64,000 nucleotides of DNA from Bispira polyomma (GCA_965649765.1 OZ287754.1:12028001-12092000); one strand, 5' to 3'; positions 594 to 56,100 are shown, counted from the first letter of the stretch. Notes: generated by a model from the sequence alone, not told the origin. Numbers and translations: made by a program.

Positions 594-3500
594 GTGAGTC
601 AAAGGCACTAATTAATTCTATATATCTGGGTTTACATCTTATTCCTTAAAATGGATGTATACTTGTTTGTGTTGTTTATCTCACAGATGACCAGATTTTA
701 TACACTAAAATATATTTGGATATCATTAAATTTTGCATAGATTTTTACATAGATATACCTTTTCAACAATATTTTTAACACCTCTCAAATATCAACAAAG
801 TTTATGGTAGATATATAAACACTGCTGTAATAGACAGGACATGTTTTGTGTAAAGATAGTTTGTGAATGTGACTTATACTCCATATTACAGTTGTATCAA
901 TTATTGCAAAGAAATAAATGATTTTAAATAAGTTTCTGGAGAAGAAAAATTTATAAAAATTATGCAAAATTATTCTAGACCTCTACATATTTATATTGAA
1001 AAGGTGTCGAATATAACAAAAAGTAAAATGTATATTTAAATGTAAATAATGACTATATCTTATATATTTGTTCTGTAAAATATTATTGATTGAATCAGTT
1101 TAAAGTGACTTGTAAGCTCTCTTGTGGGCTAGGTGTATTGTATCTGTTTTTCATTTGTTGTATAGTGTTTATGTTTATATACATGTCCCTATAATTAATA
1201 AATTGAATTAAAAATTCTTTAATAATAACCTCCCTTTAAAAAAATGCACAGGTCAAAGGCATTTATACAAAAATTACAGTAGCTGCACACGCAAAATTTG
1301 GATTTTCCCTATCCGCTAAATAATGTTCCTGTTCAAATAAGTTTTCCACAGCTGAAGTCCGAGCCATAAAAATCTGTCTCTGACATCAGAAGTTGCTAAA
1401 TATATGAGAACATTATCGATTGTTTATGTCTTTGAGTCAGATAGAGGTGCATGATGAAAACATTTTATACCTAAATACATAAGTTTTAAGGCTTATACAT
1501 TTTATTACATAATCCATGGCCATATAATGCCAATGTTCATATGTGTTTATATGTTAAATAATTAATAAATGGCGTGTCTAATATTTCAAAATATGTATGG
1601 CTGCTATTCCAATATCATTTTTGTAACTACGTTCGATTTCTTCCTTACAAATTCATTCATTCAAATCGCATTTCGACATTGTTAAACCATTGTAGCACTC
1701 TGTCGTTGTTATTACCGGCTAAGATATAATTTCAAAAAGTCAGCGTTTCCCAACCAACACTGATTTTTGCCCCCCCCCCCCCCCCCCCCCTCTTTAACCT
1801 ACTACCTTAACCGATCAGATTAATTTAGTTCCTCTGAGTTTCTGCGTTTATTGTTCACCTGTTTCTGGATAGTCAAAGAACTAGTGTGGCTAGCGATGAT
1901 ACCAGTGTGCAATAGCTGCTGAACTTGAGGCAACGAAAGCCATCTGGGTGCTTGAGGCAGCCTTCAGGTCTCATTGGTCTACAGTTCCCTTAGGCCAGTT
2001 ATATAAGTGACTTTACTTATTAACACAGGAAAAACAATTGCGGTACAATACTTTATTAGTGACCAGGGTTAGACTAACATTCACTATATACAGTTAAGTT
2101 GAGAGGGGCATAAGGTAACCATAAATGCAGAAAAATTTAAGGTCACCATAAATTAGGGTAATTATGGAAAGCACGGTAAGTACTTAAGGTAACCATAGAG
2201 TAAAATAAATTTTGAGAGAGTTAAGGTTACCATAAACTAGTTTAAGGAAACCATCAATTAAGGTGACCATAAAGTGCCCGATAAAAGATTAAGGTAACCA
2301 TAAATAGGAAAATAAGTTAGAGGGAGTTAGAGGTTACCATAAACTAAGTAAAAAGTTAGATGAAGTTAAGTTTAATATATAGAGTGAAAGGATTAAATGA
2401 TTCACTGAAATTAGATTAGAATTTTATAAAAATTTGGATGAGTATGTTATGTACTAGCCAAATGTAAGGTTACCTTATGCCCCAAACAAAAGTGGTTTTC
2501 TAATTTAATTGAGTTTTTATATTTCTTGAAAAACATTTTCTGTTATACAGAGGGGACATGAATTGTCCCAGACCCCAAATACCAAATTAGTGTAGATGTT
2601 GTAAAGCAACCTGGAAGGAGTCAGCCACCTGGGTACCGACATGAGCTGAGTCAGTGATGTAACGCCAAACACAATCCGACGTCCAGGTGCCATGATGCTG
2701 AATGTCCTGTAAGGGAACATTATTGTTGAAAGCAAAAGTGGCACCGGAGCGCCGGAAAGCGTGAAATGTAAGATTAGAATCTTGCAATTTTAACAAGTGA
2801 AGGAGGTTTTTTAAATGGCTACGAACACGTGAATCAGTAAGGGGAATCCAGGTGCAGTGTAGTTTATACTGGAAGAGGGGAGCATTGGGGCCAGCGGGGG
2901 CAAGAGCCAAAGCTGCCTTGATAACCGGACATAAACTCGAACCTGGGAGGGCAGGAAGGGCAGGAAGGCAAAGCAGCCTAACTAAATCTCTTTTCTGCAT
3001 TGTTTTTCGTCCATTTCACTAACAGTATGACGTAACCAGGTTTAAGCATGACGTCCCCCTGGCCAAATGTTTCAAAGGGGAAAATGCAGCCACAGAATGT
3101 GGGCACAGTTTAGAAAGTCTTAGAAAGCTAAAGAAACTGGTGAGATATACAGTCTTAAAAGTTTGCCCCATGTATGTACAGTCACATTTTTGAATAAGGT
3201 CCAAGAGCAGGGGAATGTCAAATAAACTTTTTAGTTTCACTTTAAGAGGTCTATTTACTGATAAGGCCTTTGTGTAAAAGGCAATTCTGGCGTCCGAGAA
3301 CATCTCAGTTTTTAGTTGGAACAAATTAAACTTGGCCTTAAAAGCTGCCAAGTGGTTAGATATCTGGGAAGGGGTGACGCTGTTGAAATTAAGGAACTCC
3401 AAGTAAGCAAGTAATTGGGACGCATTCACCTGATTTATCTGCCAATCCATGAAAATGTTAAAGGCCAGAAAGAGCCTGAACATATTGCTGTAGGCCTTCC

Positions 3501-6500: not shown

Positions 6501-9500
6501 CCTGTATTATGCGTGTGAATCCGCAGACCCACTGATTTAAAGTTAGGTCATCGTAAGACGGTCTTGCCTTAAAGTTCCCGGATAGGACATGATTTTGAGG
6601 CCATTCCACCACGCGCTTTACTATGAACACCTCCCCCCCTTTGTGATTTAATCTTACCTTTCACCAAATTTTCATTTAACTGCTTGAGCTCGGCGAGTCT
6701 AACTCGACTTATTTTTGAATGTTGTCATTCTGCTTAAGAAACTGTACACTTGGTACCACAGTATTTTCACTATTCGCTGTGCTCTCCCCACTCGAACTGG
6801 TGGAAGCGGTGCTGGAAGCAGTATCTGACTTAGCAGTGCTGACACAGTTAGCGGCTGCAAGAGTCGTTTCGGTTGCAGAAACTCGCTTGTCTAGTTTCTC
6901 CATTAACTGGCCCATGGCCTGTAACTGTGATAGTATTTGCCCGGAAACAACGGCCAGACTGTCAGCACCAACCAAACTGGTGTCGATAGTCTCTTCATCC
7001 GACAGAATTTCTTCAATAGCTACTTCCTCTGATAGCACAACCTGACATTTGCTGCCTACCGGACGGGCGTGCTTAGTACCATATTTGGTACAACCGTATA
7101 CCTTGACTTTAGGCATGTTTCTATTACAGAGAGTTAATATACAATAATGCAAAATACTAAAAACAGTAAACACATGTAAAACAAGTTCTGTTCTGTGTTG
7201 AGTGTTGAACTTGCTTCCTATGCTGCCGAGTTTGAAAAGGTAGAATTATTGACGAGAGACAGCTTATATAGTGCCGCCCAGTGAGCTGTGACGAGGATTA
7301 GGCTGGTCCCCCAAGAACTGAACTCTTCACCACCGGGGTGGTGCTTTGCACTTTATTCTCAATCATCGGCATGTGACCACCCAGTTCTTAAGTCCTTCCA
7401 ATAAACATATTTTACCTGGGCCATTGACACAGTCACTCTTAACAGTTTCAGCCTGTTCAACTGCCATATTGCCCTCGTGTCTGCCATTAAAAATTTGCAC
7501 TTTACACTTACAGGTTTTTGTGATACCCCCCCCCCCCCCTCCCCACCCCCCATCCCATTCTTCACATTCAAAAGTTTTTGTGTGGCATTATTCAATTGTT
7601 TAATGCCTAAGAATATCCTCCTGTCTCCAGTCTTCCAGATGTCAACAATTATTTTGATAAGACTTGACAAATGTGCAGAACATGTGGAATTATGCTTAAC
7701 CCAGCTGGTCGATTACACATAAAGTGTAGCGTGGGGTGAAACAAATAAATGTTAGAGCTTCAAACTTTGAATACTGCAGGTTTATGCGGAGACAGCTATT
7801 TTGCATTCTGTATTTTTACTGTCACTTATTTTTAAAAGATTCTCTAAAATTTGTCATACAACAAATATTTTGACGTCTAGACTGGATGAAATAAGTCTTG
7901 TATTTCAAATTTTAGATTGATTCCTGCAATGTTATTAATTCAGAATGCCAATCTGTTAACAGCTAACAGAAAAGTAAATCTCCAAAATAGGTATGAGGTT
8001 GTAAGTTAGACAAGTTCGGTAATTTCAAAAAATGGTGGTTATCTGTCTGTGAAGATTGTAACTTGAGGTAGCTCTTTTTCTTGTGGTTAGTGTATATCCC
8101 AACATAGTCTGCATACTGGGTGCAATGACCTCTTTTATCGAGATATTGGTGATGTATATGATGACAATAACACGATTAAGCTTGTTACCCTGGGGATGAG
8201 CATAAGAATAAGAACTGTAACTTGATTGACGCAGGGTAATCAGATTCTTGTCCTCAATACATTCTTAGATTTCTCTTGGCTATGAGTTTCCATAGTTTCC
8301 GTGACATTTCAGGAGGGTCATGGGTTTGTAGGTCTTAGACAAATATCAGTGCTAAGTTCTTTTTTCAGTGTTTTCTTGATATTTGTCCTTATTTTAGGTC
8401 ATCTGTGCAAGGGGAGAACAGAGTGCGGTGGGTCATAGTGGTGATCTGTATTGCTGCAGTCTTGATGCTGGGCCTAATCCTTGGACTTTACTTTGGACTG
8501 CGAGGTAAGAAAACAAAGAAATATACAAGAAAACTTCTTCATGATGGAGCTGATCTGCATTCTCCCCAAAATTGTAGTAGATCGAGTGGGTTTAGATGAA
8601 GACAAAAAGTAGCAGTACTCTGTCCTCAAAGTAAGGTTAAGAACACACTGGTCACTCTCAATGCTCTCAATACTGAATGAATTGTAATCGATTTTAAATA
8701 AAAAAAGACTCTTAGCTAAAATGAATAATTTTAATTTTCATTAAAATTTCATTGTTTTCCTGAGAAATATGTTTTGCCTAAAATTTACCTACACAAATTT
8801 CAAAATGATTTTCATGGACGGAATGGGTAACCATCCACTAACATACCAACTCAAGGTTAAGTGGCAATACCCTTCCATGATATTTTTCCAAATTTTAAAA
8901 ATCCATAACTCAAAACCTACAAATTACAGCATAACCCTATAGCATTCAGTTTATTTCTGCGTCTGGCTGAATATCTATGGCCAAAGCGCATATCTGCCGC
9001 ATTATACCCAGGTCTCAGAGTTAGCCAAAACTTAAGCATTGTATGACTTGATTTATACACTGATTGATATACTAAAACTTTTTTTTTTAATTTTTAACTG
9101 CTGCTGGATATACTAATGTGTGTGTGAATTTTAATTACATAGAAATTACATACTCACATGTTTTTCATAAACTGTATCACTTTTGAGGCATAATATAAAT
9201 TCATAGTGTAAGCAGTACATGATATAACATTTAATTTTTTATTTATTCATTTTTTTTGCAATATGTACAATAGTTTTATATCTCTACACCATTAAAACCT
9301 CATTTTTTTCATGTTGCACTAGAAAACAATATGACTGTGTAAGGAAATTAATGGCACTGATAATGTGGCTTCCCAAAATTGTGCAAAAACAATATATACA
9401 AACAAATGTCTATGTGATTAAAGCGACCAGCATAGTTTACTGATTATGTACTAATTGCTCAAATATATTAATTTAGTTACCAATAGTTCTTTTTTGATTA

Positions 9501-15500: not shown

Positions 15501-18500
15501 CTCCAGGAACTAGGCTTTGCGATTAGTCACAAAAAACTTGTTCACCCCAGCACGTCAGTAACGTGTCTGGGGGTGTTAGTTAATACAAATGACTTGACAA
15601 TCTCATTGCCAGATGAAAAGCTACTAGAAATAAACACACTTGTGCAAGACTGGCAATTAAGAAACTGCTGCAGTAAGAGGGAGTTGCAGTCACTGCTAGG
15701 TAAATTGTTATATGTATCCAAATGTGTTCGAGTTTCACGTGCTTTCTTAAACCGAATGCTTGACGTCCTAAGATCTGTAGGCCCGGATCAAAAAGTAAAA
15801 CTCACACCTGAGTTTCATCAGGATGTAAATTGGTTTAAAAAATTTTTACCAACATTTAATGGAAAAGCCTTCTTTGAACACAAACCCACTACCGATTGTA
15901 TTCAGTTGGATGCGTGCCTCCAAGGTCTGGGAGGCCGTTGTAATGATGAAGTATACCAATTCCAAATTCCTCTAGGTTATCTAGATTTCACGATAGTTCA
16001 TCTGGAAATGTTAAACATCCTAGTTGCCATTAGGCTATGGAAGTCAGCGTGGGCAGGTAAGAGGTTAATATTGCAATGCGACAATGCTGCCGTGGTCACT
16101 ATCCTAAATTCAGGCAAAACTAAAGACCTCATTTTAGCAGCTATTGCCAGAAACATCTTCATGGCCGTAGCCTCCCATGATATCAGTCTCAAAACCATTC
16201 ACATTTTAGGTAGACTTAATACAGTGGCTGATCTCCTCTCCAGATGGCAGATCACGGCCAGTAATAATGACAAGTTACTACAACTGGTATCGAATCCCAA
16301 ATGGGTAAAAGTAAAAGACACAATGTTAGAAATAGATTGGTCTATCTAATTGCAGATGTACCTTCCAAGCTAAGAAAGATTGCTACACAAGCCTCATACA
16401 GAGCCCATCAGGCCTTTAGACCAGCCACTGAAAGGGCCTATACAAATATGTTTAGGATATTCTTGGCCTATTGTAGTTTTGCTCAGGTCAGGCCTCAAAA
16501 TATCTCCCCCCTTATTATATTGGCTTTCTTAGAAGTATTAGTGGTTAATCATGTCTCTTCCTCCTCCATTGCAAACTACCTTTCGGCGGTTAATGCTAAA
16601 TTGGCCCTCTATGGCCTTGACGTCTCTACATTTGCAGATCCTAGAATTAAGTATTACCAAAAAGCCCTTACACTCAATAGCCCCTTCAGGGCTAAAATTA
16701 ACGCTATTATTGACATTCCCCTGTTACTCCAAATTACTCAAATTTGTGACAGCATGTACATGGGGCAGATCTTCAAGGCTCTGTACCTCATTGCCTTCTT
16801 TTCTTTTCTTAGAATATCCAACTTACTTCCACATGCTGTCTCTCAATTCTCTCCACTAGTCCAACTGGCCCGGGGGGACGTACTTTTTGCCTCCCCTGGC
16901 CTCCACCTCATAATAAAGTGGTCTAAAACAATGCAGTCAAAGAATGTAGCAAAAGTTATTAAAATACCGAGTCTAAGTGGCTCTAGTCTCTGTCCGGTGG
17001 CTGCCACAAGGGCCTTGCTGGCTATTACTCCTGGACACAAAAATTCTCCTCTCTTTCAGTTTAAAAAATACCATAAATGGTCTCCAATGATTGACACCCA
17101 AGCTAGGCAAAATCTCACGCAAATTTTGAGGCGTCTTGGCCTCCAGCAATCAAACATTTCTTTCCACACCTTCAGGCGTTCAGGTGCCACCTGGGCCTTC
17201 AACAATAATGTCCCAATTCAAGATATCCAGAGCCATGGCACTTGGACGTCTGATTGTGTGTGGAAATATATTGTACAGGATCACAATGCATCTGACCAAG
17301 TCGCCCTCACCTTCAAGGCCCTCCTTTCCCCTTCTACTACTTCCTAGTTGGGCTTTGGGGCTTTATTTACATACATTATATACAAATAAAATATAATAAT
17401 GCTTAAATATAAATATTTTGGGGCCACCTTACCTTATACTAATTTAATCCTTTTACATCTTTACTAAATCTCTTTTGGCAACCTCAAATAAAATCTAAGG
17501 TTACCATTTTTCTTAAATTTAAACTCATTCTAAGGTTACCCTAACTTGAAGTTAGGGTACCCCTAAATTCAACCTTAAAAATTTCAATCTTTGGTAACCC
17601 TAACTTCCAAGTTGGGGCTACTCTTAACCTTAAACTCAATCTTAGGTAGCCCTAACTTTCAAGCTAGGGCTACCCCTTAAATTTTAAAAAATCCCTTTGA
17701 TCACTTTGGCCTGTTGTCCTCAGGTTAAGGTCACCTTAAACTCTTAACTTCTCCTAAACTCTTGGGGCTAAGGTGGCCCCTTACTACACAGTATGTAAAT
17801 AATTATTAGTGATAACATAGTAAAATTAAAGCTAATATCCCCAAAACCTACCTTTCTTGTTATTTTCCTGTGTTACACCACATCTACAAGTTTACTAGGA
17901 TAGGGCACTGTGCGGGGTAGCGCCGTAGGGGATAGCAAGTTCAGTGCTACTAGTATTTTCCTCCCTGGGTTTATGCTCTATGAACCCCTTCCTAATTGGT
18001 TACTTGTATACTAATTAACCTCTGTTTTCCCGCTTTTTAGCTAGAATCCTCACTTACACTATTGAAGTCATTTAGGCAACAACGCCATCTTTAATATTTT
18101 ACATTACCCACCCACTTGCCCCTACTACTTCCTCTGTAGTTTTCAGCTATGCGTCCGTCCCTGGAGTGCTGCATGCAGTCCCTGGGGTTCCTGAAGTCTC
18201 ACTTTACACCTTGGCGCAGGGGGGTGGGGGCTCGGGGCTGTGGGCCCACGAGTTATGCATTACTGCTGGCCTTCACAGTTCCCCGCCCTTGGGGGCCTTC
18301 TGGGGCCTCAGGTGACTTATCTCCCATACTTTTCTGGGTAACACCAGGGCCCTTAGGGGCCAACACTTACTTTTAGGTAGCTGCTTGCTGCTGAGGTTGC
18401 GTCTCCTTTTGTTGTTATCAATGTATGTTACTTTATTGTCTTCAGGGTTTTCCCTTTGTTGTATATCAAATTGATAATGTTGTCAAATGTCCTGCGTCAG

Positions 18501-21500
18501 GCAGCACGATTTATATGTATACAGTATGTGAAGTCGCATCCTTTTTGTTGTCATAGTAGCATGTAAAGTATAACTATTAATGTTGTTCCTCGTCACAACG
18601 AGGACTGGATTTGTAAAATGTTTGTATTTCGCAACCTGGTGTTGTCGCTAGTATAACGTTATAATGCATTGCACATCATGTTGTGTGCAAGTGCATTTGG
18701 TAGCTTTGTGATCACATGTTGAACTGTAAGCATGTAGTTTCAGGCATACTGGATTCATGGATCTCTTGTGGCTCAGTCAGGAATGAACTCTATACAAGCA
18801 AGCACTGCCCTCCTGGAAGACAAGAGCTACTCGATTTATATTTTGCTCATGTCTGTATGCATGTTCTCTGTAAGCCATGGTAATTGTATATGCTAGGGGT
18901 TTAAGGTCTACTGAGTTTTTTGCTATTCTTATGGACTTTATTAGTGAGCAGCACAGGTTTTAGTCTCTTAGCTAGTACCATGGTTTTTAATTTCGATTTT
19001 ACCCTTTTTTGGGGGCTTTATTTACATACATTATATACAAATAAAATATAATAATGCTTAAATATAAATATTTTGGGGCCACCTTACCTTATACTAATTT
19101 AATCCTTTTACATCTTTACTAAATCTCTTTTGGCAACCTCAAATAAAATCTAAGGTTACCATTTTTCTTAAATTTAAACTTATTCTAAGGTTACCCTAAC
19201 TTGAAGTTAGGGTACCCCTAAATTCAACCTTAAAAATTTCAATCTTTGGTAACCCTAACTTCCAAGTTGGGGCTACTCTTAACCTTAAACTCAATCTTAG
19301 GTAGCCCTAACTTTCAAGCTAGGGCTACCCCTTAAATTTTAAAAAATCCCTTTGGTCACTTTGGCCTGTTGTCCTCAGGTTAAGGTCACCTTAAACTCTT
19401 AACTTCTCCTAAACTCTTGGGGCTAAGGTGGCCCCTTACTACACAGTATGTAAATAATTATTAGTGATAACATAGTAAAATTAAAGCTAATATCCCCAAA
19501 ACCTACCTTTCTTGTTATTTTCCTGTGTTACACCACATCTACAAGTTTACTAGGGTAGGGCACTGTATATATTTATATTTTTTGTCTGATGCCTACTCTT
19601 TACTCTTAGTAATGGATATGACCTAGCCACACATCATTTCATGAACAAAGCCAAATTGATTTCAATCAAGATGATTATAACACAATTGTTCAAATCTGGA
19701 CCTGAGTGACGATCAAATGCAGGTTTAGTCTAAAAAAAGCCCAAGTTGTTCGTAGCCATAACAATTTAATTTACAAGTTACTCACAAGAACATAAGTGTT
19801 CACAACAATAAAAAGTCAATGTCTAAGCTAGTCCACGTCATTTTAGATTTTTATTACCAAAACATCTGGTCATTGTGATCCAATCTCAGATGTAAATTCT
19901 GAGTCCTTTAACTTCTTTCTGTTTGACAATACTTTTGTGTTCACAACAGTAAAAAGTCAATGTCTAAGCTAGTCCAGGTCATTTTAGATTTTTATTACCA
20001 AAACATCTGGTCATTATGATCCAATCTTAGATGTAAATTCTGAGTCCTTTAACTTCTTTCTGTTTGACAATACTTTTGTGTTCACAACAGTAAAAAGTCA
20101 ATGTCTAAGCTAGTCCAGGTCATTTTAGATTTTTATTACCAAAACATCTGGTCATTATGATCCAATCTTAGATGTAAATTCTGAGTCCTTTAACTTCTTT
20201 CTGTTTGACAATACTTTTGTGTAAGTTTGTTCAATTGTCAACTGTTTGAACTTTTTTAATTGTTGAGGTTTATTACTGCTTTATTATTTTTGTTTGCAAT
20301 TGATTAAGTACATCGTCAAAACTGTTAGTAAACTGAACATGACTCAGGTTTTTGCTTCATAATGTACAATTTTATGTTGTCAGTTTCATCATTTGATTGT
20401 GATAGCGTGGCCTTTTTTAATTTGTTAAACATTATTTTTTTTCTGACATGTAATGATAATACTCATTCACACAAAGCTATTCATAACAAGATCTCAATGA
20501 TAGTAGAAGTCTATTATCTTTCATTCCTGTCAGTTAATTGTCTCCTGGAGCAGCTTTCCATAAGTAAATGGGTAATCTGATACCTAGGTTTAATGCACAT
20601 ATTCAGTAAGAGTTAGAAATATTTGAACACAGAGGCTTGATAATGACCATTTTATAAACTTTCCCAAGGTACTTAAGCCTGAGACTGGGTATAGAAATAA
20701 ATAACAGAGGACTGCCATTTTAAGTTGCCATCTAAATCCAGGTTCTTTGTATTCACAATGTTGGTGTGTCATCCTCTAAACAATGCATGGTGGTAGGTAA
20801 TTTAATTAGAACCACCTTTAGCCGTCTCTGATGGTCTTTATGACTAGATAGACCTTAGTTGTTGAAAATGATGTAATAACGAAGAATTATATCTTGCATT
20901 TTATACATGGTTAGTGGTATATTAATGTAATTTTTTTTTTGTATTGTAGGAGAGCAATGCAAGACTTCATCAGTATGTTCAGGGGCTGATGTCAATGAGG
21001 CAATTGAATCTGTCTTTCCCACCACAGGTAAAATGACATGATTTGAATGGATATTAATAATTAACTGACAATATGGTCCTGAAAATATTGTTAATGTGTG
21101 TATGATGTGTACATCTGATTTAATGCCACTAGCTTCTCACCTCTAATGACAGTAGGTTTGTCTCCTACTGCCTCTTCCATGTGAGAAAGTGGGTCATATA
21201 CTTGCTGTGCATTCAATTATTTTCCAAGTACAAATAGAACTGGATTCCTCCACCAATAAATCTAGCCATCACAATATTACTACCTTATCAATCAGACATC
21301 ATTACAAGCTATTTGATCTATCTGTGTCATAATCTGTGTCAGTAAAATGTATGTATGTGTCTTCATGTGTAATCGATAAACTATATGTAACTCACAAGGG
21401 ATCTTTATAATTTTGCAACCAAACCACTGATCTAGAGAGGTGCCAACTTGATACATTTTCTTTTTTATCTTTTGTTTTGTTTGTTGTGATTTTTTCTGTG

Positions 21501-24500: not shown

Positions 24501-27500
24501 TTTTTGAGATACTAATACATCTATTTATTTATTTGGACTTTGTTAGTCTGAAGAGCTTTTAATGCAGTCCATAACAGGCAGAGTATGAAGCAGTACATAT
24601 TTTACTCTTGCCAATTTTTATTTCCTATACAACATCCCCTCTTCTATTTCAATATCTTGAATAGTCTGTAATTTTGCAAGCCCTTTTGATGCCAGGCATC
24701 TTCTGAATCAGAATCAATGGTGGCAATTATAATCAGTTTTCAAAGAAAGAAACTGATTAAGAGGATGCTTAATTATTTCATGACAATGAATTCTCTGCTT
24801 TAGGATTATCCCTTGTTGATGAACAAAACAGAACACAGTCGAATAGCAGTTACTATTGCCGATCTTTAGAATCCCTTGTTTTACACATATTTGCAAAGTA
24901 GATTAAATTCCAATTTTTATTTCTTTATATGGGAAATTATGTCAGGAACTCCTCTATAATATTGTAGATTGTTTTAAGACGTATTTCTTGATATAGCCAT
25001 AATTGTGTATTTCCTACGCCATTCAAAAATTACATGAAAGAAATACATACGATCGGTATGTACAAATATATATATTTACAGATATTAATGAATGTGAAGA
25101 AGTCAACTGTGTCAACGGTACATGCACGGACCTAATTAATTCTTTCAATTGCATTTGTGATGATGGGTATGAGGGAGAACTGTGCGCCTCAGGTATGAGT
25201 ACTATTTCTTCTTCATCCTAATTTATTTCAGAAGTTTATCAAATATTGTATTATGAGCATACATATAACCCGCAGGTTAACCTATACCAATTTAAAGAAA
25301 GTTCTCGATATCCTATATGGATAAAAATAACACCAGCTAGGAAACCTTCCTTGATTTAAACATGCATTAATGATGGTAGTCTCAATATTTTATTTGGTAG
25401 AGTAGTAAATCAATTAATAATGGTGATAAGATTACAAAATATGGTTCCCTTTGGAATAGACCATTGCTTAAAAATTTTAAATTTTATTATAGACTCAAAT
25501 ATTTTGGTACTGTGATAAAGCAAAGAAATGTGCATTGATTGTGTGCATAACCTTCAAACTGTTGGATATGTCTTATTTTGTCTTATGTTTCATGATGTAT
25601 CTCCTGAATTTCCCTAGATGTGAATGAATGTGATGATGATCCATGTCAAAATGGTGGCAATTGCTCAAATTCTGAGGGATCATTTGTCTGTGAATGTGGA
25701 CCCGGTTTCTCTGGCAATTTGTGTGAAGAAGGTAGGTCGGACAAATGAATTTTACAACAGGAGAATACACTATGCAGGTGCCAGGGCCCATCATGGATGA
25801 CCTAAATCATCAGTCAACTCAAGTAAAGACTGTATAAAAATTACTTTATTATTCCACTAAACCATTTCGGCAATGAATTACCATATGATGTCTGATTTGA
25901 CCTAGCATTATTTAATTACAATGTACACATTGCCGTGCCCGCTGATGTACTTATTCTTTACAGAGCAGTAATCTAACATAAAAGTGTAGTCAATCTCATT
26001 GAACAGTGTACTTTTTTATCAATTTACAATAATAATACGCAAGGGGGTTTAGAGTGTGGCCGGCCCCCACATTTAGAGATATTCGGCCTGGGGATTTGGA
26101 TTTTTCATGGTATTCACCGACTACTTTCATTTTTATAAAAGATTTCATCAAAAAGTAGGTCTTATGGTATGACTTTCATTGCTGTTTCATTTCTTTTCAC
26201 ACTACATACAATGGATTTTTACTCCAATCGTATCTTTCTTTCCTTGGTCAATTATTTTCTGTAGCATTTCTCTCGTAAAATTGACCGCTCATAGCATGGA
26301 GTGATGCCATCACAATATGGCAGATCTTGCTTTCAATAAAATATGCAAAAATAGATAAAAATGTTGCGAATTTAGTGAAGGACTATCATATGTTGAAGTA
26401 AAATATGACAATATACCTAACATACAACCAACTGAGCATTTTTTTTCTTTTTTACAGCATGTAATAAGAATTTTTTATCGGAACCGTGAGTATACAGTCA
26501 CCACTTTTCAGCCCGCATTCCCTTAAAAGGTACTTGGCCTTCAACAATCAGCTGATCGTTGAGATAGATACTTCTAGGTTGGCAGATAGATAGATAAACT
26601 TTTTTATTTCACTTTTAGGTAGACACGATGACAGGTCGACTTATACGTCGACAGATATATATTTTTTTAAGTTTTAGGTAAACATGTCGACAGATCATTT
26701 TTTGGGGTAAGATATAGGTTGACAGGTCGACAGATAAATAGACAATTTTTTTTGTAACGTTTAGGTTGACAGGTTTTTTGCAGGTTATAGTTAACTATTT
26801 CTGACAGTTGACTCTACACAATCTGCCAACATACAAAGCCGTGCCTGTGGCAATAGCTAGTAATAAATTAATATATTATAGAACAACTACAGAAGCCAAT
26901 GTATTTGACAGTCTCTGGTTATTTTAGTTAAACACATTTTATTATAGATTACGATTATGAATACTGCTGTACACAATGAATAATAATAGGTATATTCCTG
27001 TTTTCTGAACAAATTGTTTTACACAATTTTATAATCTTATCGTCAGTATGGAGAGGCAGTAAGAGATGTTTTAAAAATCATCAGTGGAGGGGGGATAACC
27101 CTGTCTATAACTTCCTGTATGTTTAGCTTACTTTGGGAACCTTTGTAAACATTCTGTAGTCAGCTGCGCACAGTAATAATGTTGAGTAGGGTCAAAACTT
27201 CTGTGTCACCAAGATGGAAAAGGGTGGTAAAATACCTTCGAGTATTTCTGTATTGCTAGTCTAACTCTTGCTAGTCTGTAAACTTATCCAAAGATTTGGG
27301 GTATATTGCCTTAGATGCAACAGTTAATATTACACGAATAAAGTCCAAGGGTTTTACAATGACTTGATTTACTGATTATTTCACTTTTATTTGCAGACCT
27401 TGATGAATGTATGAACCTCAGTCCCTGCAGTAATGGCACCTGTCTAAATACAGTGGGCTCATACACATGTATCTGTGATGATGGGTATACTGGGGAAGAG

Positions 27501-30500
27501 TGTGATGAAAGTAAGCACCTTTTGTACTCTTAATGTCTAAACAACATATGGTCACACAAAGCACTTGTACAAGACGATTAAAGGTCACTGTATTTTGGTA
27601 ATTACAACATCCTGCAGATGATCCTGTTTCTATCCCACAGTTACAGCCAGATAACACAGTGACTTGATGATGACCACTTATTATTGACATCGCAAGTAGC
27701 AGGCTGAAAAACCTCTGAACATTTAGGAAGAATGGTCATCTACAAGCGTAAAGTTAGTGGTTGGCTGTCATAAAAAGAATGTACCCTAGGAACTTTGTGT
27801 GCTAAAATAGAAGTACTACTTTTAAAAATGGAATGTTAATGGGATTAGTGGCTATATATTCACCCAAAGCACCATTTGCATTTATGTTTTTAGATATCAA
27901 CGAATGCAACAACAATCCTTGCTTTAATGGAGGAATATGTTCAGACACACGTGGATCTTTTACCTGTGATTGCACTGGTACTGGCTATACTGGCGACGTC
28001 TGTGGGATTGGTGGGTATATTGTGACACTTTTTCATTCAATCTGTGAAATAAGTCATTAGGTAAAAAGCCTGCAAATTATGTTACGTACCTCACATGGTC
28101 CCCCATGGCCTAGTGGTTTAAGAGTTGGTATGATGATAAGAAGGTCACGGGCTCTACTCACAGTATCGGCTGCTAGTTTTATTGGTGGAATAACATCCTT
28201 GGGTAAGATATGTACACACATTTTCCTAATGGCTCGGATGACTACTTAAAATCCCTCTGTCTTTGAGTCCTATCCCCAGTGGCAAGCTAACGATCTTTGG
28301 AGACATTGAGTAGTTGTCATCCTTCAGTTTTTGGAATGACAGTAGTAACAGATGCAGTTGACTATTCCAGTCAGGAAAGGTCAAATAGTCATATAATCAC
28401 TGTGACATCACTAGTCATTTTATTTCATTTTTTCGTAAATTACAAAATCCTTTTATATTGAACGTTATATTAAGCTGTACTTTATTGATATTTATTGAAA
28501 CATCAAAACTTTTTGTACCAAATATAGCTGTAAACAATAAACCAGAGAAATAGCATATATTTCTTAATATTTTCAAATAGTACTCTTTTTCTGGATTACT
28601 CATTGGTAACATTTACTCCTGCCCAATGACAGGTGGGACACTAGCATTGAATGTCTGCATAGCAATGAATGTCAATCTAGAATGAATATCAATCTGGTGG
28701 CATATGTAAAGTAAAAGAATAACTTATTAGACTACAACAACAATTTTCTGCTAGTTTTAGAGGTATATTGTAAATAATCATTCAAGAACACGGTACTCAT
28801 TACACACTGATCTTTCGCCAGATCTGCACAAAAATGTAATGGATTCTTCACATGTTCTACCCTCCTCAAATTGGTTAAGTAGCTTTTGTGTGATCCTTCA
28901 ATCGAACCAACTAACTAATAAACAAACAAACCAACAAACAAACCTACAGGCGTAAAAGTGTAAGTAACTAAATAAGTAACTCTGTACCTTAGAAAGACAA
29001 ATCTTTCCAAAAGACTTGCCCAGTCAATATGTGGCTGGACATTCAGTGGTAGCTGAGTACCATCATTCGCTGGTGGGTCATCAACAGTGTTGTCTCCATT
29101 TCCTAAGAATTCGCTAATGAACAACCAGTCTTGTAGTCTGCATCTCCATAAAAATGAAGTAACATGAGTCAATCCTACTCCAGACTACAGCATTTACCAG
29201 AGAATCGATAGTTGACTACTTTTTCTTTATTTGTATTTTTATGTTTGTATTATGATAATCACTTGCACCATTTATATAATGCCAACTGGATGATATTACA
29301 TCTTCCAAGGCATTTATTCTTTAATATCACTTCACATAAATTTTTCTATATACAGTAGTTTCCAGACATATGTAGTTTGAACGGATGAGAAACAGACTTA
29401 AAGGTCGTTTTTATATGCTACCATTTCTCAGTCGGTTCTGATATTGATCGATAGTTACAGATATTTCCATTTTAGTATTGATCTCATGATGCATCAACAT
29501 TTCGCCTCATATATATAAATAATTTACACCTATTTAGTAAAGTGTAGTGGGTTTTTTTCAGCCTCGTGTGAATACAGAGAAATCCACCGTTGTTTAGACT
29601 TGTTTAAACTTATCCAAAGATTTGGGGGTATATTGCCACAGATGGAACAGTTAATATCACACAAATCAAGTCCAAGGGTTTTACAATGATTTGATTTACT
29701 GATTATTTCACTTTTATTTGCAGACCTTGATGAATGTATGAACCTCAGTCCCTGCAGTAATGGCACCTGTCTAAATACAGTGGGCTCATACACATGTATC
29801 TGTGATGATGGGTACACTGGGGAAGAGTGTGATGAAAGTAAGCACCTTTTTGTACTCTTAATGTCTAAACAACATATGATCACACGAAGCACTTGTACAA
29901 GACGATTGAAGGCCACTGTATTTTGGTAGTTACAACATCCTGCAGATGATCCTGTTTCTATCCCACAGTTACAGCCAGATAACATAGTGACTTGATGATG
30001 ACCACTTATTATTGACATCGCAAGTAGCAGGCTGAAAAACCTCTGAACATTTAGGAAGAATGGTCATCTACAAGCCTAAAGTTAGTGGTTGGCTGTCATA
30101 AAAAGAATATACCCTAGGAACTTTGTGTGCTAAAATAGAAGTACTACTTTTAAAAATAGAATGTTAATGCGACTAGTGGCTATATATTCACCCAAAGCAC
30201 CATTTGCATTTATGTTTTTAGATATCAACGAATGCAACAACAATCCCTGCTTTAATGGAGGAATATGTTCAGACACACGTGGATCTTTTACCTGTGATTG
30301 CACTGGTACTGGCTATACTGGCGACGTCTGTGGGATTGGTGGGTATATTGTGACACTATTACATTCAATCTGTGAAATAAGTTATTAGGCATAAAGCCTA
30401 CAAATTATTTTACGTACCTCACATGGTCCCCCATGGCCTAGTGGTTAAAGAGTTGGTATGATGATAAGAAGGTCACGGGTTCTACTCACAGTATCGGCTG

Positions 30501-32186
30501 CTAGTTTTATTGGTGGAATAACATCCTTGGGTAAGATATGTACACACATTTTCCTAATGGCTCGGATGACTACTTAAAATCCCTCTGTCTTTGAGTCCTA
30601 TCCCCAGTGGCAAGCTAACGATCTTTGGAGACATTGCGTAGTTGTCATCCTTCAGTTTTTGGAATGACAGTAGTAACAGATGCAGTTGACTATTCCAGTC
30701 AGGAAAGGTCAAATAGTCATATAATCACTGTGACATCACTAGTCATTTTATTTCATTTTTTCGTAAATTACAAAATCCTTTTATATTGAACGTTATATTA
30801 AGCTGTACTTTATTGATATTTATTGAAACATCAAAACTTTTTGTACCAAATATAGCTGTAAACAATAAACCAGAGAAATAGCATATATTTCTTAATATTT
30901 TCAAATAGTACTCTTTTTCTGGATTACTCATTGGTAACATTTACTCCTGCCCAATGACAGGTGGGACGCTAGCATTGAATGTCTGCATAGCAATGAATGT
31001 CAATCTAGAATGAATATCAATCTGGTGGCATATGTAAAGTATAAGAATAACTTATTAGACTACAACAACAATTTTCTGCTAGTTTTAGAGGTATATTGTA
31101 AATAATCATTCAAGAACACGGTACTCATTACACACTGATCTTTCGCCAGATCTGCACAAAAATGTAATGGATTCTTCACATGTTCTACCCTCCACAAATT
31201 GGTTCAGTAGCTTTTGTGTGATCCTTCAATCGAACCAACTAACTAACTAATAAACAAACAAACCAACAAACAAACCTACAGGCGTAAAAGTGTAAGTAAC
31301 TAAATAAGTAACTCTGTACCTTAGAAAGACAAATCTTTCCAAAAGACTTGCCCAGTCAATATGTGGCTGAACATTCAGTGGTAGCTGAGTACCATCATTC
31401 GCTGGTGGGTCATCAACAGTGTTGTCTCCATTTCCTAAGAATTCGCTAATGAACAACCAGTCTCGTAGTCTAGATCTCCATAAAAATGAAGTAACATGAG
31501 TCAATCCTACTCCAGACTACAGCATTTAACAGAGAATCGATAGTTGAGTACTTTTGTTTATATTTGTATTTTTATGTTTGTATTATGATAATCACTTGCA
31601 CCATTTATATAATGCCAACTGGATGATATTACATCTTCCAAGGCATTTATTCTTTAATATCACTTCACATAAATTTTTCTATATGCAGTAGTTTCCAGAC
31701 ATATGTAGTTTGAACGGATGAGAAACAGACTTAAGGGTCGTTTTTATATGCTACCATTTCTCAGTCGGTTCTGATATTGATCGATAGTTACAGATATTTC
31801 ATTTTAGTTTTGATCTTATGATGCATCAACATTTCACCCATTATTGACTTTTTACATTATATATATAAATAATATACACCTATTTAGTACAGTTTGGTGG
31901 ATTTTTTTCAGCCTCGTGTGAATACAGAGAAATCCACAGTTGTACAGACCCACAACATTTTAAATCACTATGCAATGCAATAGGTGAGCCCCTTGAAGCG
32001 AATCAAGCGTCTGATTGTTTCGAAATGGCCTGCAATGCTACCCAAGTGAACACAATCAACTATGTACATGATACTACAATGTGTCACTTTCTTGAGTGCC
32101 AGGATTCTTTGCAGCTGGTTATAACATCATCCAACACTGAAATTTACATACGCCAGCCTGATTATGTAACCCAGGATATATTATAG
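565..32186 (+). CDS. Spliced gene: type II membrane protein, TM-SEA-10xEGF-PAN/apple-like (~665 aa, 17 coding exons)
   Basis: Exons 565-593, 8398-8504, 11157-11278, 11839-11894, 12164-12351, 20950-21027, 21572-21682, 22279-22392, 23054-23167, 24100-24216, 25082-25192, 25618-25731, 27397-27510, 27894-28010, 29724-29837, 30222-30338, 31912-32186. All introns are GT-AG with matching phases; total 1998 nt ending in TAG. Confidence 0.8.
1981..2580 (-). repeat. B terminal repeat of copy 1, containing 9 TAAGGTNACCATAAA-type motifs (2111-2479)
   Basis: Motifs start at about 2111, 2138, 2185, 2222, 2243, 2259, 2290, 2329 and 2465. Confidence 0.85.
2587..3575 (-). pseudogene. Tyrosine recombinase of copy 1 (frameshifted near 3020-3060)
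   Basis: [37 protein letters not shown]. Confidence 0.92.
3609..6087 (-). pseudogene. pol (RT + RNase H) of copy 1, disrupted
   Basis: [24 protein letters not shown] and YIDDY (RT); LDACL, LEMLN, CDNQAVV and ANLLSRW (RH). No methyltransferase domain follows RH. Confidence 0.92.
6059..6093 (-). promoter_or_regulatory. Predicted -1 programmed ribosomal frameshift signal (copy 1)
   Basis: A_AAA_AAC, a 6-nt spacer, then the hairpin GCCACTGCA-GAAA-TGCAGTGGC; the -1 frame runs directly into ORF 5344-6063. Confidence 0.8.
6084..7116 (-). pseudogene. gag-like ORF1 of copy 1 (frameshifted)
   Basis: MPKVKVYGC...; [11 protein letters not shown]...QWVCGF...[11 protein letters not shown]; C-terminal CKFFQDGSC...H...HVCETC...H...C zinc knuckle ending KN*. 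Confidence 0.85.
8398..8504 (+). CDS. Signal-anchor TM exon ([27 protein letters not shown])
   Basis: Basic residues followed by a hydrophobic helix; ttttag| acceptor and G|GTAAG donor. Confidence 0.85.
9886..10129. mobile_element. MITE-like element
   Basis: Inverted ends TATTTTCGGCCTA / TAGGCCGAAAATA. Confidence 0.55.
11157..12351 (+). CDS. SEA domain, 3 exons (11157-11278, 11839-11894, 12164-12351)
   Basis: [21 protein letters not shown] ... [15 protein letters not shown], including the SEA G-S-V motif; junction phases 1-0-2-1 are consistent. Confidence 0.8.
12375..12569 (+). repeat. Split direct repeat A1 (195 bp)
   Basis: Matches 17911-18105 with about 3 substitutions by eye. Confidence 0.95.
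12906..13881 (+). pseudogene. gag-like ORF1 of copy 2 (one +1 frameshift, probably in the G run at 13160-13164)
   Basis: N-terminal CHKC...H...C; [31 protein letters not shown]; C-terminal CRYFQRGTC...H...HVCNQC...H...C. Confidence 0.9.
13869..13903 (+). promoter_or_regulatory. Predicted -1 programmed ribosomal frameshift signal (copy 2)
   Basis: A_AAA_AAC, a 6-nt spacer, then the hairpin GGCACTGCA-GTAA-TGCAGTGCC; pol is in the -1 frame. Confidence 0.8.
13875..16349 (+). pseudogene. pol (RT + RNase H) of copy 2: one frame interrupted by TAG at 14043 and TGA at 15372
   Basis: ORFs 14076-15374 and 15399-16349 share a frame. Motifs: [48 protein letters not shown]. Confidence 0.95.
16301..17347 (+). 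CDS. Intact tyrosine recombinase ORF of copy 2 (probable exon start at 16356)
   Basis: Catalytic set present: FLRISN (R), KWSKT (K), HTFRRSGA (HxxR), HGTW (W), WKY (Y). Confidence 0.95.
   Translation: MGKSKRHNVRNRLVYLIADVPSKLRKIATQASYRAHQAFRPATERAYTNMFRIFLAYCSFAQVRPQNISPLIILAFLEVLVVNHVSSSSIANYLSAVNAKLALYGLDVSTFADPRIKYYQKALTLNSPFRAKINAIIDIPLLLQITQICDSMYMGQIFKALYLIAFFSFLRISNLLPHAVSQFSPLVQLARGDVLFASPGLHLIIKWSKTMQSKNVAKVIKIPSLSGSSLCPVAATRALLAITPGHKNSPLFQFKKYHKWSPMIDTQARQNLTQILRRLGLQQSNISFHTFRRSGATWAFNNNVPIQDIQSHGTWTSDCVWKYIVQDHNASDQVALTFKALLSPSTTS
17357..17910 (+). repeat. Split direct repeat B1 (554 bp)
   Basis: Matches 19012-19565 with about 3 substitutions by eye; directly abuts A2. Confidence 0.95.
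17911..18105 (+). repeat. Split direct repeat A2
   Basis: Copy of 12375-12569; the B1|A2 junction is GGCACTG|TGCGGG. Confidence 0.95.
19012..19565 (+). repeat. Split direct repeat B2
   Basis: Copy of 17357-17910; ends AGGGCACTG. Confidence 0.95.
19796..20222 (+). repeat. Tandem repeat, 3 x 141 bp
   Basis: Unit GTGTTCACAACA...GACAATACTTTT starts at 19796, 19937 and 20078. Confidence 0.95.
20950..21027 (+). CDS. Linker exon ([25 protein letters not shown])
   Basis: Phase 1-1, polypyrimidine tag| acceptor, CAG|GTAAAA donor. Confidence 0.65.
21572..21682 (+). CDS. EGF-like exon 1
   Basis: [36 protein letters not shown]; phase 1-1. Confidence 0.85.
22279..22392 (+). CDS. Ca-binding EGF exon 2
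   Basis: [38 protein letters not shown]. Confidence 0.9.
23054..23167 (+). CDS. Ca-binding EGF exon 3
   Basis: [38 protein letters not shown]. Confidence 0.9.
24100..24216 (+). CDS. Ca-binding EGF exon 4
   Basis: [39 protein letters not shown]. Confidence 0.9.
25082..25192 (+). CDS. Ca-binding EGF exon 5
   Basis: [36 protein letters not shown]. Confidence 0.9.
25618..25731 (+). CDS. Ca-binding EGF exon 6
   Basis: [38 protein letters not shown]. Confidence 0.9.
26578..26830. mobile_element. MITE-like element with AGGT(C/T)GACAG subrepeats
   Basis: Inverted GTTGGCAGAT / ATCTGCCAAC; internal GTCGAC/GTTGAC repeats. Confidence 0.45.
27397..27510 (+). CDS. Ca-binding EGF exon 7
   Basis: [38 protein letters not shown]. 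Confidence 0.9.
27894..28010 (+). CDS. Ca-binding EGF exon 8
   Basis: [38 protein letters not shown]. Confidence 0.9.
28095..28330 (+). mobile_element. tRNA-derived SINE (duplicated at ~30423-30660)
   Basis: A box TGGCCTAGTGG, degenerate B box GG(C/T)TCTACTC, and a CATCCTTGGGTAAGATA core motif. Confidence 0.6.
29724..29837 (+). CDS. Ca-binding EGF exon 9 (duplicate of exon 7)
   Basis: Same peptide as 27397-27510; one synonymous difference (TAT/TAC). Confidence 0.85.
30222..30338 (+). CDS. Ca-binding EGF exon 10 (duplicate of exon 8)
   Basis: Same peptide as 27894-28010; one synonymous difference (CCT/CCC). Confidence 0.85.
31912..32186 (+). CDS. Terminal exon, Cys-rich PAN/apple-like domain
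   Basis: [11 protein letters not shown]...[33 protein letters not shown]...TQDIL*; phase-1 acceptor tttttttcag|. The PAN assignment rests on Cys spacing only. Confidence 0.7.
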
Positions 32187-53100: not shown

Positions 53101-56100
53101 TTTTTGTCCTGTATAAAGTTTAAAACTCCTTACGAGTTACAATCTGTACTTTTGTTCATAGAGTATTTAGCTCAACAGGGTCTTAGAAGCCAAAGTATTA
53201 CAGGATACTTGGCTGTCCTCAGGCATTTTTTCCAGATGTACAAGTTTCCAACCCATGCCCTCTCAGATAGGAAGGTTACCTTGATGTTGAGATCCATTAC
53301 CAACAATGCCCCTCTTAAATACAAGATAAAGGGGGTTTTTTCTATACACAAGTTACAGCAGCTAATCACTCTGGTGGAGGGGTTTCCAGGGGCTCCAGTA
53401 TATAAAGCCATTTTCCTCTTGGGGTTTTTGGGATTTATAGATTAGCTACATTGGTCCCAAATGCAGTGGCTCAATTTCAGCCTTCTAGGTTCCCAACTCA
53501 GGAGGATGTTATTTGGGGGGAAACCAGGCGCGCACATAATAACTAAGTGCGCAATAAATATGCAGAAATCAGGTCAAATGCAGGTGGTACAGGTTCCTCG
53601 TATACAAGGCTCAAATTTGTGCCCGGTCCAAGCTTTACATAACATAATACCACAAAAGGTGTCTGCTAAAGCCCCTCTGCTGCAATTTTGCCATCAAGGG
53701 ACCACAACAGTGGTCACAGCCCACAAGGTGCGCAGGCGGTTAGCCCAGTTGTTACAAAAGACTGATCTGTCCCCAAGGGAGTTTGGCTTCCATTCTTTGT
53801 GGAGGTCTGGGGCGTCGTGGGCCTTTGACCACAAAATAGACCTGGACTACATTAAGGTACATGGGGGTTAGCGCTCCGATGCAATCTGGAAGCAAACACC
53901 TTTAAACAGCATTTAACAAAACATAACAACTACTAATACTTTGGGTTTGGCATTTTATCATATACATAATACACTTTAGTTTTTAAATACATTGGTAATA
54001 ATACTTTACATAGTCCTTAAATAAGTTAAGGTACCCTTAAACTGAAGCATGCCTTAATTAAGGTGGTAAAAGTGACTTCTAAGGTCACCTTAAATGGAGT
54101 TTAAGTGCTAGCATGCATAAACAAATAAGGTAAGCAAGGGCAAGTTAAGGTAATCATATTTAAGGCCTTGAGGCGAATCATGGTTTTGTGAGAAACAATC
54201 TCCAAAGAAATTGCAAAAGTCAACGACTATTAGAGGTTAGTAAATGACCATCGTGTATATTTCAAGACGCAATAATATCTATGATGATAAGAACTTTTGG
54301 AATGGTAAATAGTGACATATATATATTATGAAAATAGGCATATGTCACAGAGTATTTTAGGTGTCAAACAAATACTGGTGAAAATGTAAACTGACCGTTT
54401 GATAAAGTTACTATGGCCAACAAATAATCAGTTATAGTAGTGTTGAAATAGTCATATGAGTAGATATAATGTCTCTCCACTCACCTTTATTGGAAGTCTC
54501 TGATGACTGTAAAGTTCAAAGAAACCCTCAAGTTGTAACTCAAAGTACCTGTACAAAAGTTAAACTTTACATGTTGGTCGACTGCTATACTTTTGTAAAT
54601 GGCAAAGTAACATGGTTAGAGGTAATTATGTAGATATTATAAAATTATTTTAAAAGGACAATCAACTTATAAATAAAGTCATTGATTCTACAAAACATAG
54701 ATTTATATACTAAAATCATACCTTCCATCAAAAGACTTTAAATGTGGGTCATTGTGAATGTGGCAGTACTTTCCTGACAAAGCTGTCTCACCGTCATATA
54801 CACTGATCTAAATGGGAAATTGCAAAAAAGAACAAAACTTATTCTTGATCTTAAAAGAATACTTCCAAATAACATTTTCATCAAATCGTCATGTAATGTA
54901 CTATGTAACCAGTCACATAAATAACATACAAACCTCTTCAAGTAATAAACAGTAATAATTTGTCATTTTGGAAATGCCTATTCTTTTAAAATCTGGTAAA
55001 ACAGGTTCCAGATAGTACCCAAGTTAATAGCATACTGTACCTGTGTTTGTGGTAGCACCCCCTGCCAGAGTAAATTATTGAATTCATCCACCACCTCTGT
55101 CACAAAGAGTATGCTAACCTCCTTGCTTACTGAATATCTGCCATCTATTTTGGGAGAAACTGGTGTTGTGATGCGAGTTGCCACACTTGTGCTTGCCTTG
55201 GTGACGTAAGTGGTCGATATGTAGTTCAATTGAGTTACAACTGAAATCTGCTCTTTAAATAAAACTGTAGCTGTTCCAGTGATGACGGGTCTTAGACGAA
55301 TCTCCACACTACAATCGGTGCTACCATTACAAAGATAGCTGCAGCTAAGAGGAAGGAACAGGTCTGCGATGTAGTCGATGGCTCCAGCCCCTTCGAATAG
55401 ATCTATAGTCTTGGTAGTACTTTCCAATCCCACACTGATAGGGTAATAGGCAGAGGTGGTCATTCCAAATTCATTCTCATTTGATCTCTTTTGGCTTATT
55501 CTACAAACTAACTAAAATTTTGTGAAAAGAAATATGAGAATACATATGTATGTTACTTTGTAGTCAAGTCAGAGAAAACATTCAACATTAGCTATATTAT
55601 TATGTAGGAACATATAAACTAGTTTTTATCGCCTGTTCGATAGATTCTACAGGCAAATATAGTATGTGCATGGTAGCATACATGGCTTCTATATGATATT
55701 GCAGTCTGTCAGTATAGTTCAGGATTGAGTTGACACAAGGCCAGGGTCAGGGATAAGTACATGGATGAAAAATTTAAGTATTACACTTTCCGACTTGACG
55801 GTGATCAATCTTAATATGAAAAGGTAATAAAGGAATGCTATTCTCAAAATACCTTAGCTTAGTTTCAGTCTTAACTGTAATGTCTACTTCTCACATTCAG
55901 AGCCATGGTTTCCTTGGATTTAGCAATAATAATAAATATTATAATTCTTGGATGAAACTGGAGTCGTTGATGGAGAACCTTGGGTTCAAAAGACAATAAT
56001 TGCAAAAATATGATACATACATACCTCCACATTCTGCAATTCCGGGTTGACTTCCAGTATTTTAGACACTGGCAACTCAAAAGGTTGGTTACAGAACTGC

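Follow-up and report, generated by a model that had tools for sequence, protein, structure and literature searches.

What reads a row of nine short near-palindromes in a retrotransposon repeat, and to what end? The question is raised by 64,000 nt, one strand, of the Bispira polyomma genome (GCA_965649765.1 OZ287754.1:12028001-12092000), referred to here as the window. An earlier note on this DNA had described the row as a dyad array with a free centre and had named the element's own tyrosine recombinase (YR), a GagN-YR product or a host factor as possible readers.

The elements and their repeats

Three elements with RT and YR (copies 1 to 3) lie within the window, and Pfam matches to RVT_1, RVT_3, Phage_integrase and SAM-like domains were obtained across them; the YR matches come from copies 2 and 3, the YR of copy 1 being assigned by similarity. 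RT/RNase H and YR lie 3' of a gag-like ORF on one strand, no methyltransferase domain was detected by Pfam among 15 ORFs, and the pol stop is followed directly by an acceptor and YR. Split direct repeats of the form A1 ... B1 A2 B2 are present in copy 2 and in relatives of copy 1; in copy 2, laid out as A1 ... B1 A2 spacer B2, the paired repeats are 98.5% (A) and 99.3% (B) identical, B1 recurring as B2 at 19009-19566. These elements are Ngaro retrotransposons, an already known kind. The main features outside the array are as follows.

1981-1987, minus strand: GAACTGT at the B end, 5' half of the B|A junction hairpin and crossover point
1981-2574, minus strand: B1 split direct repeat of copy 1, from BLAST against 30 genomic relatives, several of which have B1-A2-spacer-B2
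2052-2092, minus strand: polyadenylation signal downstream of the array, predicted from sequence (TGTA 2089-2092, AATAAA 2052-2057); order kept in 23 of 33 families
6652-6664, minus strand: AG|GTAAG, a conserved splice donor inside gag from which a GagN-YR fusion is predicted
7045-7116, minus strand: N-terminal C-x2-C-x3-H-x7-C knuckle of Gag, then a predicted long helix; second Cys mutated in copy 1, intact in L432
7202-7351, minus strand: A1 repeat of copy 1, from the same 30 relatives, with the 3' half of the junction hairpin, a GC box (7274-7279) and a TATA-like word (7264-7270)
17354-17911, plus strand: B1 of copy 2, motifs at 17496, 17531 and 17726, outer stem 17420-17431 / 17769-17780
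54027-54158, plus strand: truncated B of copy 3, three motifs at 54027, 54080 and 54146
57995-58454, plus strand: orphan B repeat, motifs at 58066, 58125 and 58290, terminal GGCACTG

The A1-ORFs-B1-A2-B2 anatomy of Ngaro, in the order DIRS, has been described (PMC9210276, PMC8547959, PMC4157794). As far as the consulted parts of those papers go, the present elements share with described Ngaro the gag, RT/RNase H and YR genes, the lack of a methyltransferase, the split direct repeats and the internal repeats 3' of YR, and differ in that A1 matches just the first 150-230 of the 850-1100 bases between B1 and B2. Between A2 and B2, 700-900 bases are without a counterpart beside A1 (18106-19008 in copy 2, and in relatives of copy 1), so that A2-spacer-B2 looks like a small separate unit; for VIPER/SIRE, the part of PMC6681497 consulted treats the A2-B2 unit as a separate element, SIRE. 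Copy 1 itself terminates at the end of B1, without A2-B2, and hence has no B|A junction of its own.

Many B repeats without a nearby YR end exactly at the junction word (L052, L109, L112, L093, L098, L099, L101 and window 57995-58454); these may be B2 copies, solo B repeats or 5'-truncated insertions. Ngaro elements are often nested inside other Ngaro (L222, L305, L314, L015, L152). The window also holds a MITE-like element with 98-bp inverted ends of 15-bp units just 5' of the orphan B (57306-57892), a 2.3-kb tandem duplication (96.5%) inside a host gene with EGF-like repeated exons (27279-31949), and three tandem 141-bp copies 230 bases beyond the end of copy 2 (19796-20222).

The array in copy 1

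The B repeat of copy 1 carries seven exact and two variant copies of TAAGGTNACCWTA, nine 13-base near-palindromes spanning 2111-2477.

2111-2123: motif 1, exact, centre A on the plus strand; last motif in element orientation; forms the 3' arm of the outer stem
2138-2150: motif 2, exact, centre C
2185-2197: motif 3, exact, centre A
2222-2234: motif 4, exact, centre T
2243-2255: motif 5, variant TAAGGAAACCATC, two mismatches, centre A
2259-2271: motif 6, exact, centre G
2290-2302: motif 7, exact, centre A
2329-2341: motif 8, variant AGAGGTTACCATA, two mismatches, centre T
2465-2477: motif 9, exact, centre T, perfect dyad; first motif in element orientation
2105-2120 and 2468-2483: arms of an inverted repeat, both common to 23 sequence groups
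2099-2346: old internal duplication, 2099-2239 against 2212-2346, 72%

The nine motifs reported earlier are thus all present, the exact ones starting at 2111, 2138, 2185, 2222, 2259, 2290 and 2465, and so is the same core where it had been placed in the other copies, at 17726, 54027 (one mismatch), 54080 and 58125 (one mismatch). The window contains 34 matches on both strands with at most one mismatch, compared with 1.37 expected, a number reached in 0 of 100 shuffles. The description of a free centre holds in that all four bases occur (A, C, A, T, A, G, A, T, T) but fails in that the centre sets a polarity and is not neutral. Nor are the spacers non-repeating, as had been stated: 2099-2239 and 2212-2346 are 72% identical over 144 bases, and the spacers derive partly from this old duplication. 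Within it, 44/44 motif letters match and 47/66 spacer letters, a comparison that is partly circular since the motifs are defined by consensus. Further tandem structure amounts to a two-copy 39-bp row, with no high-identity head-to-tail units. The first and last motifs extend into a perfect 16-bp inverted repeat (2105-2120 / 2468-2483) that brackets the array.

Breadth and conservation

Among 46 B groups behind a YR, 31 have at least two motifs, four have one and 11 have none, in a sample in which relatives of copy 1 are over-represented and some loci were found by motif search. Motif-bearing families stand on both sides of the deepest YR split in the genome, with YR identity down to 37%, and array size ranges from 1 to 10 copies. 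The order within B is YR stop, a TTTGGG-like run, the array, TGTA ... AATAAA/ATTAAA and the junction in 23 of 33 families; the array is confined to the one segment between YR stop and poly(A)-like signal, with 152 motifs in 11.1 kb of B, five in 19.5 kb beyond the junction and none in 24 kb of coding sequence. Between two subfamilies of the copy 1 lineage (31 and 6 copies), 5/108 motif positions differ as against 53/262 spacer positions (p=7e-5), the motif being kept about fourfold better.

Conservation of the dyad across families, under selection, is thus supported. These results also bear on a neutral origin, by slippage and duplication around a self-complementary word. Part of the copy 1 array is indeed an old duplication, and a few genomic sites are recent tandem arrays grown from a motif-bearing B (L061 370-1234 and L084 1565-1789, with 96-bp and 28-bp units); against this, 31 of the 46 groups share motif and position while their spacers are unrelated, motif letters are the better kept, and the array stays within one segment of B. 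Recent slippage is excluded, and neutral origin as a whole is very improbable.

Across the genome, 10,625 matches to the motif were counted, perfect dyads twice, against 142 for the reversed pattern. When 57 sites were sampled and compared by BLAST with a limited library, 17 could be matched to a B linked to a YR; of the other 40, 25 lie in clusters, many have B landmarks and some lie inside other repeats. The proposition that all genomic sites are Ngaro was accordingly rejected. The motif was found within 700 bases of YR in none of 31 Ngaro-like loci from other hosts (32 loci considered), many of them short, some with a further ORF beside YR, and all with tree rows outside the clade of this genome, so that the blank may reflect lineage and not host. 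Viral contigs yielded no YR relative and no motif pair. In L259, L260, L262 and L254, of a lineage with at most one dyad, B carries a repeated TAAGTGCA(T/A) word that shares the TAAG flank.

Site shape and polarity

In 175 motifs from 37 families, tolerance is mirror-symmetric: G4 and C10 are kept at 98-99%, positions 3 and 11 are loose, and all four bases are about equally frequent at the centre (0.19/0.31/0.25/0.25). Yet conservation is higher in the half that lies 5' of a pyrimidine centre, on whichever strand that pyrimidine is. Among inner motifs, leaving out positions 3 and 11, those with a purine centre deviate 19 times on the left and 11 on the right, and those with a pyrimidine centre 3 and 15 times. 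By within-family permutation this gives p=0.004, or p=0.0002 when up to three mismatches are allowed; with positions 3 and 11 included, the values are 0.02 and 0.0002. Once oriented, the motif reads TAAGGT(C/T)ACCTTA, a pseudo-dyad whose right half is slightly weaker. This polarity is mild, the core of the weaker side still being kept at 84-98%, and neighbour-dependent mutation may contribute to it. Because the polarity is seen in both orientations, a protein reading duplex DNA is suggested; the site would then be read as double-stranded DNA independently of orientation, and the array most plausibly offers binding sites to a dimeric protein.

The nuclear-receptor half-site is AGGTCA, which each half of TAAGGT(C/T)ACCTTA resembles. 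As in nuclear-receptor sites, every copy offers AAGGT(C/T)A on one strand, and as in AP-1-like pseudo-palindromes the dyad is of odd length with one better half. Unlike in nuclear-receptor sites, the halves overlap on the centre base, a spacing that is not known for nuclear receptors, and T is common where receptors favour C or a purine; the textbook monomeric site is also at odds with a T in position 3 and with the 44% of centres that are A or T. AGGTCA is also given as the RORE core in the consulted part of PMC8240256. An array-less clade carries plain AGGYCA half-sites in B, 15 in six repeats as against 0.6 expected. AAGGTCA / TGACCT half-sites, often as inverted pairs, were observed between the poly(A)-like signal and the junction in L439-L448 and at the B ends of L301, L309, L317, L053 and L059.

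Position relative to the crossover

B ends in (G/A)NACTG|T, which pairs with CAGT words 24-56 bases inside A. Taking the two outer pairs of this junction hairpin together, 40 of 46 are complementary (null 24.3), and 23 of 27 junctions have a partner word. The crossover hairpin covaries and is found in all clades, as GAACTG/CAGTTC, GCACTG/CAGTGC, CAACTG/CAGTTG or GGAATG/CATTCC, with examples at window 17903-17960 and in L301-L320 and L361-L380. Integration splits it into left and right halves that share one T.

The array is not the core site, because this hairpin occurs in clades with and without an array; nor does it have the inverted elements around a 6-8-bp spacer at the crossover of a YR core-type site, its centre being 1 bp and its distance from the crossover more than 75 bp. 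According to the part of PMC2817482 consulted, the arm-type sites that lambda Int and IntDOT use stand at set positions on both sides of the core. As there, the array consists of several sites away from the core, and the small N-terminal domain possibly spliced onto the Ngaro YR would parallel their arm-binding domain. Unlike those sites, the array lies almost wholly on one side of the junction, varies in number and is dispensable in sister clades; it stands 77-229 bp from the crossover in 33 families, among which no 10-11-bp phasing was detected (p 0.12-0.87), some pattern-based junction calls probably being too early. Arm or accessory sites for YR, as first proposed, consequently fit poorly with a one-sided, unphased row of 1-10 copies that is absent from young clades with the same hairpin. 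Those clades, array-less with the hairpin kept, argue against a general need of the array for recombination, as judged from sequence comparison.

Folding of the B repeat

B folds better than its shuffles (z -3.4 as RNA for copy 1, z -7.4 for copy 2), and in the copy 1 fold eight of nine motifs are paired, with complementary centres. The idea that complementary centres choose partners was rejected: first and last motifs are complementary in 13/28 families (null 10.6, p=0.16) and best partners in 9/33 (null 10.6), and 29 of 100 centre permutations of copy 1 fold equally well. Self-hairpins of single motifs were also rejected, with no within-motif compensation in a test biased by its 2-mismatch limit; six of the seven exact copies would carry an A.A or T.T clash. 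G-U and A-C counts (4:1 in multi-copy groups, 14:19 in single copies) favour neither strand and were discarded as a way to pick out the folding strand. Rfam returned no matches at E<=1.

The outer stem behaves differently from the inner copies, which show no covariation. Arms of the form GGGCATAAG ... CTTATGCCC occur in 23 groups; their centres are complementary in 15 (null 9.6, p=0.002), and four non-consensus pairs are compensated against 1.3 under the null (p=0.026), the 23 groups being mutually related; the copy 2 clade adds further compensated pairs. Among the first 100 places listed, inverted pairs agree in 22 of 24, a count made by eye in which one base dominates.

The Gag knuckle

Gag starts with the pattern C-x2-C-x3-H-x2-P-x4-C, followed by a predicted long helix. 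The residues between the knuckle Cys and His vary widely, the motif being constant. No known family or fold was found for the knuckle in Pfam, PDB sequences, the ESM Atlas or Foldseek; its model has a pLDDT of 72.9 and a pTM of 0.32, with one unnamed homologue. Among 15 elements scanned, 9 have the gag donor, and a YAG word resembling an acceptor lies just past the pol stop (about 3560 in the window), so that splicing is predicted to join the zinc knuckle and coiled coil or helix to YR.

Knuckle and array occur together in 14 cases, neither in nine, the knuckle alone in three and the array alone in none, which amounts to 2-3 independent contrasts and is not significant. In 20 further motif-bearing loci the knuckle was seen in 15, one possibly from a nested element, the rest being truncated or decayed. 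Both knuckle and array are lacking from 13 full-length short-B elements (of 20 fetched), one of them with a single motif-like word near the B end, and the array from nine variant-knuckle B repeats and the F12 lineage. F12, which is knuckle-less, carries a different quasi-dyad, GCCAGTACAGGC, two to three times in B (L258, L373, L375). The half-site excess given above belongs to six representatives of a knuckle-bearing short-B clade, its knuckle-less sister having three AGGYCA against 0.5 expected. In the knuckle-bearing clade itself, which was found by knuckle query, however, B is visible in nine of ten stretches and holds no dyads, the knuckle having been read directly in one member and by query match in the others; in the F4/7/17/23 lineage the knuckle was seen in three of four, with at most one dyad. 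The earlier proposal of a GagN-YR reader thus keeps its splice signals and the observation that no array was seen without a knuckle, and meets a large knuckle-bearing clade without an array. Two narrower ideas were dropped: that a variant dyad, TTGGTCACCAA, is tied to a variant knuckle (one locus only, absent from nine relatives), and that knuckle and array co-evolve (just 2-3 independent pairs, then a knuckle clade without dyads). In another host, L397 is a knuckle-bearing Ngaro whose short B has three GCATATAACATTATGC-like repeats.

A proposed enhancer-like array in a putative split LTR

The array is a conserved and selected part of B, and we tentatively favour the reading that it acts like an enhancer: its clustered sites would be bound by a dimeric protein, probably a transcription factor of the host, which would drive the promoter-like A; a host factor appears to fit the array layout best. 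In 27 families, A is enriched in CCAAT (18/27 against 9.1 when shuffled) and GC boxes (7/27 against 2.4) but not in TATA words (8/27 against 4.9, p=0.10), the families being related.

U3 enhancer arrays of LTR retrotransposons and retroviruses are homotypic, irregular and orientation-free, lie 5' of a poly(A) signal and core promoter, and turn over fast in copy number. The Ngaro array is likewise a homotypic, irregularly spaced cluster of variable copy number, 5' of a poly(A) signal and a promoter-like A; statistically, its sites are orientation-independent, with a centre-dependent polarity on either strand. An enhancer role here is inferred from these sequence features. It differs from U3 arrays in that the 'LTR' is cut by the recombination site and the array stays 3', preceding A2 and not A1.

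B|A may accordingly work as a split LTR cut at the recombination site: B would be U3-like, with the array and then the poly(A) signal, recombination would take place at the junction hairpin, and the core promoter would lie in A. That would put the array about 220-600 bp 5' of the TATA word, either in A2 or in a circular intermediate; from there it could drive A2-spacer-B2 RNA or transcription of the circle, acting on A1 just from a distance, with TAAGGT(C/T)ACCTTA usable in either orientation. The outermost copies likely double as a long-range stem on single-stranded RNA or cDNA, which is compatible with enhancer function as a second use of two copies.

Weighing the explanations

Selection on the motif, its breadth on both sides of the deepest YR split, the symmetric tolerance with an even centre and the duplex-type polarity all argue for the enhancer-like cluster, as do the unphased, irregular spacing within B, the CCAAT and GC boxes of A, the array-less clade with AGGYCA half-sites instead and, from the consulted part of PMC6681497, the precedent of a separate A2-B2 unit. 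A host reader in particular is favoured by the blank among other-host loci, tempered by their place outside this genome's clade and the shortness of many, and by the variability of the knuckle residues next to a constant motif. On the other side, the polarity is mild and could owe something to neighbour-dependent mutation, the centres and position 3 misfit a nuclear-receptor site, TATA is not enriched in A, and in the chromosome more than 4.5 kb separate A1 from the array downstream of it. An RNA role would suit an array that is invariably located within the predicted 3' UTR and whose outer copies pair, and an element-encoded reader would explain why no array was seen without the Gag knuckle. 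As to the former, the array might act single-stranded: its copies would pair in the 3' UTR or cDNA to give a domain of several helices that the outer stem closes, and this domain would serve in priming, in strand transfer or in packaging by the Gag knuckle. The folding of B beyond shuffles, the covarying outer stem, the poly(A)-like signal that follows the array in 23 of 33 families and, in the consulted part of PMC7192593, the single-stranded DIRS-1 cDNA with no known primer are consistent with this. Any palindromes will pair among themselves, however; centres do not choose partners, permuted centres often fold as well, single motifs show no compensation, one-motif families exist, wobble counts indicate no strand, the 23 outer-stem groups are related, and pairing alone leaves the fixed sequence and the strand-independent polarity unaccounted for. 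As the main role it is somewhat unlikely.

An element-encoded reader would be the Gag N-terminal zinc knuckle, dimerised by its helix, on Gag or on a spliced GagN-YR, binding the dyads on DNA and recruiting the recombinase to the donor in the manner of a lambda-type arm-binding domain. The splice signals that would fuse knuckle and helix to YR, the 14/9/3/0 distribution, the array-less clades with an absent or altered knuckle, the different dyad of F12 and the half-site excess in the knuckle-bearing clade speak for it. The knuckle-query clade without dyads, the few independent contrasts, the one-sided and unphased position, the hairpin kept in array-less clades, the motif-less L397 and the lack of a match to a known DNA-binding fold count against it and make it rather unlikely. 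A bolder version, in which the Ngaro recombinase is a spliced two-part enzyme whose Gag-derived knuckle reads dyads and which integrates a folded single-stranded donor, with the junction hairpin as core site and paired B copies rebuilding double-stranded arm sites, is improbable; if true, it would give YR retrotransposons their first cis-acting recognition code, one that combines features of integron attC and of lambda arm sites in a eukaryote.

Novelty and significance

The 13-mer TAAGGTCACCTTA was not found in a literature search, nor were motif arrays in Ngaro repeats in the open-access literature searched. A term search of the consulted parts of four papers (PMC9210276, PMC8547959, PMC3783388, PMC6681497) gave no mention of a motif array, palindrome or hairpin. 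What is new here is the test for polarity, the clades that lack the array, the pairing rule that failed and the reading of B|A as a split LTR.

Ngaro control signals are barely described, and the transcription, packaging, priming and integration of YR retrotransposons are largely unshown, the primer of DIRS-1 being unknown according to the part of PMC7192593 consulted. The array provides a defined cis element, with natural loss clades as controls and a short list of candidate readers. Several thousand copies of the motif are present genome-wide; if it is a site for a host factor, they would be a sizeable source of dispersed regulatory sequence.
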